Source: Escherichia coli
GTDB lineage: Bacteria > Pseudomonadota > Gammaproteobacteria > Enterobacterales > Enterobacteriaceae
Assembly (NCBI RefSeq): GCF_030013205.1
Contig: NZ_CP122648.1
Direction: 5' to 3' (one strand)
DNA length: 64,000 bases
Every line of letters starts with the position of its first letter. Position 1 is the first letter of the stretch. This document shows, one piece after another, positions 21,862 through 48,982 of the stretch. The position numbers and the translations under genes were made by a program. A model generated the notes under the pieces. The model was not told where the DNA came from. It made no database searches and saw only the letters and a program-made list of their open reading frames with translations.

Positions 21862-22392
21862 ATGGCTATCACTGGCATCTTTTTCGGCAGCGACACCGGT
21901 AATACCGAAAATATCGCAAAAATGATTCAAAAACAGCTTGGTAAAGACGTTGCCGATGTCCATGACATTGCAAAAAGCAGCAAAGAAGATCTGGAAGCAT
22001 ATGACATTCTGCTGCTGGGCATCCCAACCTGGTATTACGGCGAAGCGCAGTGTGACTGGGATGACTTCTTTCCGACTCTCGAAGAGATTGATTTCAATGG
22101 CAAACTGGTTGCGCTGTTTGGTTGTGGTGACCAGGAAGATTACGCTGAATACTTCTGTGACGCATTGGGCACCATCCGCGACATCATTGAACCGCGCGGT
22201 GCAACCATTGTTGGTCACTGGCCAACTGCGGGCTATCATTTCGAAGCATCAAAAGGTCTGGCAGATGACGACCACTTTGTCGGTCTGGCTATCGACGAAG
22301 ACCGTCAGCCGGAACTGACCGCTGAACGTGTAGAAAAATGGGTTAAACAGATTTCTGAAGAGTTGCATCTCGACGAAATTCTCAATGCCTGA
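21862..22392 (+). CDS. fldA: Flavodoxin 1 (176 aa)
   Basis: Track ORF frame trimmed to [20 protein letters not shown]; flavodoxin FMN-binding signature. Confidence 0.96.
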
Positions 22393-22395
22393 TGT

Positions 22396-22428
22396 GATGC
22401 GGCGTAGACTCATGTCTACGCCGTATTA
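22396..22428 (+). terminator. Hairpin downstream of fldA (possible terminator or attenuator)
   Basis: Perfect 9-bp stem ggcgtagac/gtctacgcc just after the fldA stop; weak T-tract, so efficiency uncertain. Confidence 0.4.
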
Positions 22429-22585
22429 ATAGATAATGCCAATCAAAATAATTGCTACAAATTTGTAACTTTTGCTGTTGTACCTGTACAATGTCCCGGT
22501 GTTCAAGTGGCCTTGCCGTTGTAAATGTAAGCAGTGCCACGTTTTTATTAACAATATTTGCCAGGGACTTGTGGTTTTCATTTAG

Positions 22586-22610
22586 GCGTGGCAATTCTAT
22601 AATGATACGC
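22586..22610 (+). promoter_or_regulatory. Candidate Fur box at the uof-fur promoter
   Basis: tataatgatacgcattatc resembles the Fur box consensus GATAATGATAATCATTATC and overlaps the uof start; fur autoregulation is established in E. coli. Confidence 0.45.
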
Positions 22611-22688
22611 ATTATCTCAAGAGCAAATTCTGTCACTTCTCCTAATGAAGTGAACCGCTTAGTAACAGGACAGATTCCGCATGACTGA
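22602..22688 (+). CDS. uof: Uof, upstream leader peptide of fur (28 aa)
   Basis: MIRIISRANSVTSPNEVNRLVTGQIPHD in frame at the end of track ORF 22452..22688; overlaps the fur start. Confidence 0.8.
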   Translation: MIRIISRANSVTSPNEVNRLVTGQIPHD

Positions 22689-23127
22689 TAACAATACCGC
22701 CCTAAAGAAAGCTGGCCTGAAAGTAACGCTTCCTCGCTTGAAAATCCTGGAAGTTCTTCAGGAGCCGGACAACCATCACGTCAGTGCGGAAGATTTATAC
22801 AAACGTCTGATCGATATGGGTGAAGAAATTGGTCTGGCTACGGTATATCGCGTACTGAACCAGTTTGACGACGCTGGTATCGTCACCCGCCACAATTTTG
22901 AAGGCGGTAAATCCGTATTTGAACTGACACAGCAACATCACCACGATCACCTGATCTGCCTCGACTGCGGCAAGGTAATCGAATTTAGTGATGATTCCAT
23001 CGAAGCGCGTCAGCGTGAAATTGCCGCAAAACATGGCATTCGCCTGACTAACCACAGTCTCTATCTTTACGGTCACTGTGCCGAAGGCGATTGCCGCGAA
23101 GATGAGCACGCGCACGAAGGCAAATAA
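22681..23127 (+). CDS. fur: Fur, ferric uptake regulator (148 aa)
   Basis: Track ORF MTDNNTALKKAGLKVTLPRLKILEVLQEPDNHHVSAEDLYKRL... Confidence 0.97.
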   Translation: MTDNNTALKKAGLKVTLPRLKILEVLQEPDNHHVSAEDLYKRLIDMGEEIGLATVYRVLNQFDDAGIVTRHNFEGGKSVFELTQQHHHDHLICLDCGKVIEFSDDSIEARQREIAAKHGIRLTNHSLYLYGHCAEGDCREDEHAHEGK

Positions 23128-23143
23128 GCCAGCCGGAACGAGA

Positions 23144-23171
23144 AAAGCCAACCTGCGGGTTGGCTTTTTTA
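23144..23171 (+). terminator. Rho-independent terminator of fur
   Basis: gccaacctgcgggttggc hairpin followed by tttttt. Confidence 0.7.
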
Positions 23172-23210
23172 TACACGGGAAATAAGAAAAGCGAGAGTTA
23201 CAGCTCTCAC

Positions 23211-23537
23211 TTATTTGTTATTACTGCGAATTTCCTGCCAGACCTTATCACAATCGGCTTTTACCGCCTGGTCATTACCGGTTTGCGTTGCGCGCAGACA
23301 CTGCTGATAATCCAGTACGCGTACACTTTCCTGGTCGGCAAAATGCTGATGTTGTTTCTCTTTCTTCAGCACGTTTAACACGCTCTGGCAGGCTTCAATT
23401 TTTTCCGGCGAACCTTGCGCGGTGTTAATACAGGCGCTGTATGCCTCTTTCAGACGACTGTCTTCCTGTGGCGCGGTTGATTGCGCACAAGCTACCAGCC
23501 CCGATGCCATTATGGCGATGAGAATCAGTTTTTTCAT
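23211..23537 (-). CDS. chiQ: ChiQ (YbfN) lipoprotein (108 aa)
   Basis: Track ORF MKKLILIAIMASGLVACAQ (lipobox LVAC); directly downstream of chiP. Confidence 0.9.
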   Translation of the reverse strand: MKKLILIAIMASGLVACAQSTAPQEDSRLKEAYSACINTAQGSPEKIEACQSVLNVLKKEKQHQHFADQESVRVLDYQQCLRATQTGNDQAVKADCDKVWQEIRSNNK

Positions 23538-25349: not shown

Positions 25350-26052
25350 TAAATATCCTCCGGCATAGCCGGAGGTTTTTCAAATGCGCCTATAAGGCTC
25401 TCTTACCAGCCGCGCCCTAACAGGCGCACACGATCTGACATTTGCATCCAACTTCGTTACTTACGGCCCGTAAACGGGCTGCCCGGATAGGGAATCGATA
25501 ACTGCTCTCCCATTTTATCCTCTTCAAGCTGGTGCTTTATGTAATCCTGTATCTTCGCCGTGTTCTTACCCACCGTATCGACGTAGTACCCTCTGCACCA
25601 GAACTCTCTGTTCCTGTATTTGAATTTCAAATCACCAAACTGCTCGTAAAGCATCAGACTGCTTTTCCCTTTCAGATATCCCATAAAGCCGGATACGCTC
25701 ATTTTGGGCGGGATCTCCACAAGCATATGGATATGATCTGCACAGCATTCAGCTTCAAGAATCCGTACGCTTTTCCACTCACACAGCTTTCTCAAAATAC
25801 TGCCTATTGCTCTACGCTTCTCTCTGTAGAACACTTGTCTTCGGTATTTTGGCGCAAAAACTATGTGATATTTACAGTTCCATCGGGTGTGCGCTAAGCT
25901 CTTTTCGTTCCCCATTGGGACCCCCTTTTGATTTCTTGTTTGACACTTGCAGTTGCCAGACCGCAAGGTGTTTTAACAAATCAAAAGGGGTTTTAATAAC
26001 TGGCTCAAAGCTGAAAGCTTTCCGGAACCCCCAGCCTAGCTGGGGGTTTTCT
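25350..26052 (-). mobile_element. IS200 (IS200/IS605 family, about 0.7 kb) inserted between chiP and glnS; boundaries approximate
   Basis: Contains an IS200-type tnpA plus hairpins near both ends (26026..26048 aacccccagcctagctgggggtt; 25357..25375 cctccggcatagccggagg); no IS of this kind at this position in K-12 as I recall. Confidence 0.7.
25457..25915 (-). CDS. tnpA: IS200 transposase TnpA (Y1/HUH family, 152 aa)
   Basis: Track ORF frame trimmed to MGNEKSLAHTRWNCKYHIVFAPKYRRQVFY...; matches IS200 TnpA as I remember it, including the HIH motif (ADHIHML) and catalytic Tyr region. Confidence 0.9.
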   Translation of the reverse strand: MGNEKSLAHTRWNCKYHIVFAPKYRRQVFYREKRRAIGSILRKLCEWKSVRILEAECCADHIHMLVEIPPKMSVSGFMGYLKGKSSLMLYEQFGDLKFKYRNREFWCRGYYVDTVGKNTAKIQDYIKHQLEEDKMGEQLSIPYPGSPFTGRK

Positions 26053-38702: not shown

Positions 38703-40127
38703 ATGACCAAAAAACTCCATATTAAAACCTGGGGCTGTCAGATGAACGAGTACGATTCATCGAAGATGGCCGATCTGCTGGATGCCACCCACGGCTATCA
38801 ACTGACCGACGTGGCGGAAGAAGCGGATGTGCTGCTGCTGAACACCTGCTCAATCCGCGAGAAGGCTCAGGAAAAAGTCTTCCATCAGTTGGGTCGCTGG
38901 AAACTGTTAAAAGAGAAGAATCCAGACCTGATTATCGGCGTCGGCGGCTGCGTGGCATCGCAAGAAGGTGAGCACATTCGCCAGCGCGCCCACTATGTCG
39001 ATATTATTTTTGGGCCGCAAACGCTGCACCGTCTGCCGGAGATGATCAACTCCGTGCGCGGCGACCGCAGCCCGGTTGTAGATATCAGCTTCCCGGAAAT
39101 CGAGAAGTTTGACCGTCTGCCGGAACCGCGCGCCGAAGGACCGACCGCGTTTGTCTCCATCATGGAAGGCTGCAATAAATATTGCACCTACTGCGTAGTG
39201 CCTTACACCCGTGGTGAAGAGGTAAGCCGTCCGTCCGACGATATTCTGTTTGAGATCGCCCAGCTTGCGGCTCAGGGCGTGCGTGAAGTTAACCTGCTCG
39301 GTCAGAACGTGAACGCCTGGCGTGGTGAAAACTACGACGGCACCACCGGATCGTTTGCCGATCTGCTGCGTCTGGTTGCTGCGATCGACGGGATCGATCG
39401 TATTCGCTTTACCACCAGCCATCCGATCGAATTCACCGACGATATCATCGAAGTGTACCGCGACACGCCGGAGCTGGTGAGCTTCCTGCATCTGCCGGTA
39501 CAGAGCGGTTCCGATCGCATTCTGAACCTGATGGGACGTACCCATACAGCGCTGGAGTACAAAGCGATCATCCGTAAACTGCGTGCGGCGCGTCCGGATA
39601 TTCAGATCAGTTCTGACTTCATCGTTGGCTTCCCTGGCGAAACCACCGAAGACTTCGAGAAAACGATGAAGCTGATTACCGACGTCAATTTCGACATGAG
39701 CTACAGCTTTATCTTCTCTGCACGTCCGGGTACGCCAGCCGCCGATATGGTTGATGATGTTCCGGAAGAAGAGAAGAAGCAGCGTCTGTATATTCTGCAA
39801 GAACGCATTAATCAGCAAGCGATGGCATGGAGCCGCCGAATGCTCGGCACCACCCAGCGTATTCTGGTAGAAGGTACATCGCGTAAGAGCATCATGGAGC
39901 TTTCCGGTCGCACTGAAAATAACCGCGTGGTTAACTTCGAAGGTACACCGGATATGATCGGTAAATTCGTCGATGTAGAAATTACCGACGTCTACCCGAA
40001 CTCTCTGCGCGGTAAAGTGGTGCGAACTGAAGATGAAATGGGTCTGCGCGTGGCAGAAACACCGGAATCGGTGATTGCCCGTACCCGCAAAGAAAACGAC
40101 CTTGGCGTGGGTTATTATCAGCCGTAA
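38703..40127 (+). CDS. miaB: MiaB, tRNA i6A37 methylthiotransferase (474 aa)
   Basis: Track ORF; radical-SAM CxxxCxxC (CNKYCTYC) and TRAM domain. Confidence 0.97.
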
Positions 40128-40132
40128 TTCTC

Positions 40133-40165
40133 AGGCCCGCCGTTCCGGTGGGCCTTGTTTTTTCT
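40133..40165 (+). terminator. Rho-independent terminator after miaB
   Basis: aggcccgccgttccggtgggcct hairpin followed by tgtttttt. Confidence 0.6.
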
Positions 40166-40279
40166 CTCTTTATCCCCATCTTTATCGCAATGCTTGCGCC
40201 TTTTTCCTGTGGCGTGAATAATTTCCTTATAGGCCGGTGAATGTTCAGCTTCCGGCGGCATACAGATAAGAGGAACGGT

Positions 40280-48046: not shown

Positions 48047-48982
48047 ATGGCACTGCCAATTCTGTTAGATTGCGACCCAGGTCATGACGACGCTATCGCA
48101 ATAGTTCTCGCCCTCGCCTCACCAGAGCTTGATGTCAAAGCAATTACGTCTTCCGCCGGAAACCAGACACCAGAAAAAACCTTACGCAATGTTCTGCGTA
48201 TGCTGACCTTGCTTAATCGCACCGATATTCCGGTAGCAGGCGGCGCGGTAAAACCGTTAATGCGTGAGTTGATTATCGCGGACAATGTGCACGGCGAAAG
48301 CGGTCTCGACGGCCCGGCATTACCGGAACCGACGTTCGCACCGCAAAACTGTACGGCGGTAGAGCTGATGGCGAAAACACTACGTGAAAGTGCGGAACCT
48401 GTCACGATTGTTTCTACCGGACCGCAAACTAACGTTGCCTTGCTGCTCAATAGCCACCCGGAACTGCATAGCAAAATTGCCCGTATCGTGATTATGGGCG
48501 GTGCAATGGGGCTTGGTAACTGGACGCCTGCGGCTGAATTTAATATTTACGTTGACCCGGAAGCGGCAGAAATTGTCTTCCAGTCAGGGATCCCGGTGGT
48601 GATGGCCGGTCTGGATGTTACTCACAAAGCACAAATTCACGTTGAGGACACCGAGCGTTTCCGCGCCATTGGCAACCCTGTTTCAACCATTGTTGCCGAA
48701 CTGCTGGATTTCTTCCTCGAATATCATAAAGACGAAAAATGGGGCTTTGTCGGCGCACCGCTGCATGACCCATGCACCATCGCCTGGCTGTTAAAACCGG
48801 AGTTGTTTACCACTGTTGAGCGCTGGGTTGGCGTGGAAACACAAGGGAAATATACCCAGGGTATGACGGTTGTTGATTATTATTATCTGACCGGCAATAA
48901 ACCGAATGCTACTGTAATGGTCGATGTTGATCGTCAGGGCTTTGTTGATTTACTGGCTGATCGTCTGAAATTTTACGCTTAA
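48047..48982 (+). CDS. rihA: RihA, pyrimidine-specific ribonucleoside hydrolase (311 aa)
   Basis: Track ORF frame trimmed to [22 protein letters not shown] (nucleoside hydrolase DxDxxxDD motif). Confidence 0.95.

Follow-up and report, generated by a model that had tools for sequence, protein, structure and literature searches.

The fldA-uof-fur control region of Escherichia coli re-identified: Fur operator, leader reading frame and leader hairpin compared across Enterobacterales

Introduction

Enterobacteria control iron through the master regulator Fur, whose own expression level sets the threshold of the whole iron regulon. The closest described system to the locus treated here is uof-fur of E. 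coli K-12 (b4637-b0683), in which the same synteny (ybfE-fldA-uof-fur-chiQ-chiP) is combined with a leader ORF of 28 codons, an 8-nt overlap with fur, a UCA at codon 6, a Fur box and the same promoters. Three promoters feed ybfE-fldA-uof-fur. A separate uof start site lies upstream of uof, and two fur promoters have start sites inside it, the Fur box overlapping the -10 element of one of these (Pfur-a). PfldA has been reported to be activated by SoxS. The distal promoter in the fldA-uof spacer is said to have been found OxyR-activated by Zheng in 1999.

At the level of translation, papers that cite Vecerek et al. (2007) summarize that work as showing that fur translation is coupled to uof, and that the small RNA RyhB blocks initiation at uof and hence Fur synthesis. 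According to similarly brief accounts, RyhB nucleotides G44/C45 are required for its action on uof/fur, and MiaB-modified tRNA-Ser is the preferred reader of the UCA at uof codon 6, so that Fur synthesis is tied to iron. One paper reported that RyhB lowers the short fur mRNA and not the uof-fur mRNA, a poor fit to the simple model.

Classical Fur operators are found in the promoter regions fepD-entS, fepB-entC and fepA-fes, which have been reported as Fur-footprinted. Like the site described here, they are 19-bp dyads of GATAAT-type hexamers lying over core promoter elements; unlike them, the present site regulates fur itself, and the operator holds the start and first five codons of a leader ORF, on read-through transcripts only. 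The K-12 fur promoter belongs to the set of DNase-footprinted regions on which a 24-site information-theory model of Fur sites was built and validated. Translation of an upstream ORF likewise controls a downstream regulator, with an sRNA acting at the initiation region of the upstream ORF, in the pairs PhrS and the uof upstream of pqsR (P. aeruginosa) and GcvB and thrL. PhrS activates by opening structure whereas RyhB represses, and the resemblance is one of mechanism only, with no sequence relationship.

Materials and Methods

The window is the whole stretch of E. coli DNA that was analyzed, 64 kb in length. Fur boxes were searched for on both strands of the 64 kb with the 19-bp consensus GATAATGATAATCATTATC, allowing at most 3 mismatches, and the search was calibrated by scanning the MG1655 ent-fep cluster, which holds the three promoter regions named above, with the same consensus. 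Promoters were located by consensus scans. For comparison across species, 80 fur loci from species-representative genomes were added to the window, giving 81 Enterobacterales loci. A covariance model of the leader hairpin was built from 13 sequences, and all 81 loci were aligned to it.

The anatomy of the locus, its identity with K-12, the strength of the Fur-box match, the promoter geometry, the conservation patterns and the hairpin covariation come from the present analysis. The Fur footprint, the coupling, the effects of RyhB and MiaB and the existence of multiple promoters were taken from the literature, the details of mechanism through secondary citations.

Results and Discussion

Identity of the locus

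The features of the locus are collected in Table 1. We interpret them as the known E. coli fldA-uof-fur control region acting on two layers, DNA and RNA, and give this reading a probability of about 0.88. The window belongs to E. coli: a query of 821 bases around the locus (22380-23200) was 100% identical to several complete E. coli genomes and was present in 5424 of 5426. On the + strand the gene order is ybfF, ybfE, fldA (21862-22392), a 209-bp spacer, uof and fur, and chiQ and chiP follow downstream of fur on the opposite strand. The locus is thus the already known fur control region of E. coli, real and ordinary.

Table 1. Features of the fldA-uof-fur control region (positions are those of the window).
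Feature	Position	Strand	Description	Basis
Distal promoter-like site, probable Puof	22463-22492	+	TTGTAA-18-TACAAT, in the fldA-uof spacer	consensus scan (9/12)
Proximal fur promoter (Pfur)	22575-22603	+	-35 TTTTCA (22575-22580), 17-nt spacer, -10 TATAAT (22598-22603)	consensus scan
Fur box (Fur operator)	22598-22616	.	TATAATGATACGCATTATC, 16/19 to consensus, over uof codons 1-5	consensus scan; K-12 identity
uof	22602-22688	+	28-codon fur leader ORF, peptide MIRIISRANSVTSPNEVNRLVTGQIPHD, stop TGA	sequence; RefSeq; NCBIfam NF011344
uof codon 6	22617-22619	+	UCA (Ser), reported to need MiaB-modified tRNA-Ser	sequence; role from literature
Leader hairpin (RNA)	22634-22652	+	CACUUC / loop UCCUAAU / GAAGUG, in the fur leader, inside uof	folding; covariation
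fur Shine-Dalgarno	22667-22670	+	AGGA, 10 nt before the fur ATG, in uof codons 22-23	sequence; invariant in aligned relatives
uof/fur overlap	22681-22688	+	ATGACTGA, 8 nt, fur start codon then uof stop	sequence
fur	22681-23127	+	ferric uptake regulator (148 aa)	ORF listing; RefSeq annotation

Compared with MG1655, two differences were found in about 320 aligned bp covering the 3' end of fldA, the spacer, uof and the start of fur (22533 and 22641). The second, T to C, causes the only residue change in uof relative to K-12 (Ser14 to Pro, TCT to CCT); the Fur box is identical in both. When the 93 nt of Fur box and uof were searched for as an exact match, the K-12 allele was found in 4810 of 5424 complete E. 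coli genomes and the Pro14 allele of the window in 393, and a Phe14 allele was seen in one further locus (L004). Codon 14, the most variable one of uof, belongs to the hairpin loop of the leader; no functional consequence of the exchange is expected.

The ORF is labelled "uof: fur leader peptide" by RefSeq in a genome that is 100% identical over the 821 bases, and b4637 of MG1655 is labelled "RyhB-regulated fur leader peptide". Its peptide matched the equivalog HMM NF011344 of NCBIfam (PRK14761) over the full length (1-28) with 81.3 bits against a cutoff of 71 (E = 3e-23). As is characteristic of a fur leader peptide, the ORF is short, lies 3' of fldA and directly 5' of fur, and has a stop codon that overlaps the fur start.

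Several other elements were observed in the window. Two copies of the IS200C transposase gene (9024-9482 and 25457-25915) flank the kdp-fur-chiP segment, and an Rfam match to STnc490 (146 bits; 25925-26048) adjoins one of them. A gene for an RHS core protein and transposase pseudogenes lie at 2874-8724. The window also contains miaB (38816-40240), 16 kb from uof, a linkage that is probably coincidental.

The uof reading frame

The sequence-only reading had described a 28-codon ORF ending 8 nt inside fur. This was confirmed, including the peptide as quoted there, with the ATG at 22602 and the TGA at 22686-22688; the start coordinate that it gave, 22586, lies 16 nt upstream of the ORF. The frame begins ATG ATA CGC ATT ATC TCA and ends CAT GAC TGA, and the ORF listing shows it mechanically lengthened to a TTG at 22452.

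Taken by itself, a frame of this size is within chance expectation, as a stop-free stretch of 25 codons of the same composition occurred in 21% of shuffles; ORFs that begin with ATG and have at least 28 codons number 404 in the window. The significance of uof lies in its identity with the experimentally studied K-12 locus and not in its statistics.

Conservation of uof in Enterobacterales

An alternative to a working leader ORF is that uof is a by-product hardly or not at all selected for a function, taking its ATG from TATAAT followed by G and its stop from the fur codons ACT-GAY, and open between them by chance. Conservation would then concern the promoter with its Fur box, the hairpin of the leader and the Shine-Dalgarno sequence of fur. 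We regard this as improbable; the comparative evidence in its favor is given first. The sequence TATAATG was kept in 73 of the 81 loci, yet only 38 have an ORF that runs from this ATG into fur, and the chance of an open frame is 0.21-0.45. The promoter accounts for the conservation of the ATG, since its -10 region (TATAATG) supplies it, and the overlap ATGACTGA was retained in 78 of 81 loci because codons 2-3 of fur are ACT GAY. As start and stop are supplied in this way, the comparison gives no independent reason to require a functional ORF.

The 38 uof-bearing loci come from Escherichia, most Citrobacter, Enterobacter, Kosakonia, Phytobacter, Leclercia, Kluyvera, Pluralibacter gergoviae, Pseudescherichia, Superficieibacter, Siccibacter and one Erwinia MAG, the last being probably a chance case. 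In 37 of them the frame ends at the stop in the fur overlap, 28 having a spacing of 79 nt from ATG to fur, eight of 82 nt and one of 85 nt; in the remaining locus (L045, 79 nt) the TGA of the overlap is missing and the frame reads on. In Salmonella arizonae, C. sedlakii, Klebsiella oxytoca, Raoultella, Mangrovibacter, Atlantibacter, Cedecea, Buttiauxella, Pantoea and most Erwinia, the ATG is kept and its frame either closes after 4-26 codons or continues in phase into fur. In Salmonella and Klebsiella this ORF has 14-16 codons and stops before fur. Six NCBI contigs encode a Fur of 150 aa ending HAHDDATK, which we take to be the Salmonella enterica protein, and in all six the ORF has 16 codons and ends 27 nt short of fur. 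The absence of uof from Yersinia enterocolitica has been noted in a published comparison. On a neighbor-joining tree of fldA+fur, the distribution of uof requires at least eight gains or losses, and uof was lost at least about six times within Enterobacteriaceae. The refuting condition named by the sequence-only reading, a small ORF not conserved in relatives, therefore divides by lineage: uof is kept in Escherichia, most Citrobacter, Enterobacter and several further genera, and missing in Salmonella, Klebsiella and the majority of the other Enterobacterales.

The pattern of substitutions is also in line with a by-product. No excess at third positions was detected among 24 distinct sequences of the 79-nt class, in which the variable sites were distributed 15/11/13 over codon positions 1/2/3. 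The conserved parts of the peptide map to DNA or RNA elements: the N-terminus (MIRI/MRRI) to the Fur box, the C-terminus (ATGQIPHD) to the fur Shine-Dalgarno region, and further residues to the arms of the hairpin. Codon 6 is TCA in Escherichia, most Citrobacter and Pseudescherichia, and CCA/CCG in Enterobacter, Kosakonia, Phytobacter and Leclercia.

Against the by-product stand the K-12 experiments cited by several papers, in whose summaries uof is translated, fur translation depends on uof and RyhB acts through uof. Moreover, codon periodicity is not expected of a leader ORF whose translation, rather than its product, matters. Finally, all 37 loci with a spacing of 79 or 82 nt are open despite many substitutions (36 stop at the fur overlap), and the two classes differ by exactly 3 nt, i.e. 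one codon, some loci differing by 3-nt indels. The comparative data are thus compatible with, and no proof of, a leader ORF of which the translation and not the product would matter in some lineages.

In four loci from Buttiauxella, Dryocola and 'Enterobacter sp. R1' (L056, L057, L059 and L062), the TATAATG start is in frame with fur and open, about 66-69 nt upstream. If used, it would give a Fur protein with an N-terminal extension of 22-23 residues.

Fur box and promoters

The suggestion that a Fur-box-like site overlaps the beginning of uof held up well. TATAATGATACGCATTATC was the sole match with at most 3 mismatches in the 64-kb window, where 0.03 are expected, and only 2 of 100 shuffles gave any match. 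In the calibration, the ent-fep promoter regions yielded matches with 3-6 mismatches, so that the fur site, with 3, equals the best of them. The box lies over a core promoter element of the gene that it would regulate: the -10 hexamer of Pfur forms its first six bases, and the uof ATG straddles the 3' end of this hexamer. Given the identity with K-12, for which a Fur footprint on the fur promoter has been reported, these data support TATAATGATACGCATTATC as a Fur operator.

Two weaker matches to the consensus, at 48869-48887 inside rihA (4 mismatches) and at 22432-22450 in the fldA-uof spacer, a short way 5' of the distal promoter (GATAATGCCAATCAAAATA, 5 mismatches), were judged weak or due to chance as Fur sites; the latter could be a secondary Fur site or a chance match. 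The OxyR site of fur is located in this stretch. A candidate OxyR site abutting the distal -35 was kept as a lead only, as its fourth tetramer fits the OxyR consensus poorly.

That the box is nothing but an AT-rich -10 region with an accidental dyad and no operator function, fur not being directly autoregulated here, is very improbable: the -10 hexamer accounts for six of its 19 positions, in relatives the match falls off to 4-7 mismatches while TATAATG persists, and E. coli fur autoregulation is described as weak, but a site with 16/19 is the best in 64 kb and equal to the best enterobactin operators, its right half CATTATC is a perfect half-site with no promoter role, and the fur promoter belongs to the DNase-footprinted Fur regions, the model covering the footprint.

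Pfur was the best sigma-70-like match in the region (10/12), and its hexamers, with variable spacer, were kept in 66 of 81 loci, a pattern that is typical of promoters and is shared by the distal site. Its predicted start, at about 22609-22611, lies inside uof and downstream of the uof ATG; therefore the Fur-repressible transcripts should have no uof start codon and be unable to encode the full uof, which would be carried only by longer transcripts. The distal site is probably Puof and would give transcripts with the uof AUG; the assignment to this exact site, like the exact transcript starts in this strain, is inferred from the sequence. Its pattern TTGTAAC...TGTACAAT, with variable spacer, was found in 27 of 81 loci when applied strictly, including Salmonella and Erwinia. 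With the Fur box over the proximal -10 and transcript starts inside uof, the data support the view that autoregulation through the box and uof-dependent coupling act, at least in part, on different mRNA species. As a speculation, Fur bound at the box may also block read-through from upstream.

Leader hairpin and RNA folding

The alignment brought out a small hairpin inside uof, for which folding predicted a pairing probability of about 0.9-0.99, varying with the transcript. Its loop consists of uof codons 14-15, the most variable ones, and both the Ser14Pro exchange and the Salmonella-type 1-nt deletion fall into it. Other lineages have different stems at the same place, i.e. GCUCC/GGAGC in Atlantibacter, CGCUCA/UGAGCG in Cedecea and Buttiauxella, GCCC/GGGC in Mangrovibacter and CUCCC/GGGGG in Shimwellia. 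In the 81-locus alignment, which was fitted to the structure and thereby favors pairing, 89.4% of cells pair, compared with 80.6 +/- 0.9% in shuffles and 32-50% when the partners were slid. Seven of the eight pairs showed changes on both sides, and 38 cells were compensatory where shuffles gave 10.3 +/- 2.8. Despite the structure-fitted alignment, the slid controls and the differing stems of the lineages speak for a real hairpin. It was present with or without an intact uof, which assigns it to the fur leader and not to uof. It could stabilize the short fur mRNA or belong to a structure that is unfolded by uof translation, and it may already be contained in a published probing model.

Besides this small hairpin, RNAalifold detected almost no covariation in the whole leader of 16 species (term +0.17), and no claim is therefore made of a conserved structure that occludes the fur ribosome binding site. 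A long-range helix between 22573-22592 and fur codons 6-12, which appeared in minimum free energy folds of the long transcript, had no comparative support and was discarded. In partition-function folds the fur Shine-Dalgarno sequence was mostly paired (unpaired probability about 0.25) and the fur AUG mostly free, a weak and non-discriminating result. In long transcripts the dyad of the Fur box was predicted thermodynamically to fold, at 22599-22615, into an AUAAUG/CAUUAU hairpin that pairs the uof AUG (unpaired probability 0.08).

No Rfam family covers the fur leader; the only matches were below threshold, on the opposite strand downstream of fur. They lie in the terminator region between fur and chiQ (23137-23218, - strand), with STnc370 at 28.9 bits (cutoff 54) and isrD at 20.4 (cutoff 37), and most likely reflect a shared terminator-like hairpin only.

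Translational coupling and RyhB

The earlier proposal of fur autoregulation and of translational coupling of fur to uof is supported by the annotation and by publications on this exact locus, and the comparison with published uof-fur data showed agreement, including the presence of the MiaB-dependent UCA.

Duplex prediction did not single out the uof start as a RyhB site, and the computed pairing was set aside as uninformative. When RNAduplex was run unrestricted on RyhB and the leader, it paired them over their full length, a meaningless result. When restricted to the RyhB core, the scans placed the best site at 22520-22548 (-18.1 kcal/mol, about the 5th percentile of the window background), not at the uof start. 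An extended duplex of RyhB nt 42-82 with 22578-22625 reached -20.8 kcal/mol and uses the terminator stem of RyhB; it puts G44/C45 opposite the GC at 22623-22624, a consistency check only. In a published benchmark, the RyhB-uof model of the literature was not predictable, and that model also uses the terminator stem.

Proposed mode of control

In the two-layer reading of the fldA-uof-fur region, iron-loaded Fur would bind the box over the proximal -10 and lower transcription, i.e. negative autoregulation on the DNA layer. The transcripts affected would start at about 22610, downstream of the uof ATG, and so would not encode a full uof. The RNA layer would concern the longer, uof-bearing transcripts, which are expected to come from the distal promoter in the fldA-uof spacer, from PfldA and from PybfE. 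On these, ribosomes translating uof would traverse the leader hairpin and the fur Shine-Dalgarno sequence and terminate at the UGA 5 nt past the fur AUG, and either termination-reinitiation or unfolding would couple Fur synthesis to uof translation. At low iron, the Fur-repressed sRNA RyhB would pair around the uof initiation region and block translation of uof and hence of fur. A second iron input could arise if the Fe-S enzyme MiaB becomes inactive and the UCA at codon 6 is poorly decoded.

Compared with K-12 uof-fur, the window differs in having Pro14 for Ser14, in the hairpin loop. The finding is the re-identification of a textbook locus and contains nothing new by itself. A more general picture, which we offer tentatively and rate somewhat below even odds, is that uof is a young, lineage-restricted and repeatedly lost overlay on an older leader composed of the Fur-box/-10 promoter and the covarying hairpin, with E. 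coli making uof-less and uof-bearing fur mRNAs under different translational control. If this is true, the RyhB/uof/MiaB circuit of K-12 would not generalize to Salmonella or Klebsiella.

The side results are modest: the uof mechanism is not a general enterobacterial feature, the leader hairpin is conserved independently of uof, and the Fur box and uof act on partly different transcripts. They can guide the extrapolation of E. coli models of Fur autoregulation to Salmonella, Klebsiella and Yersinia.
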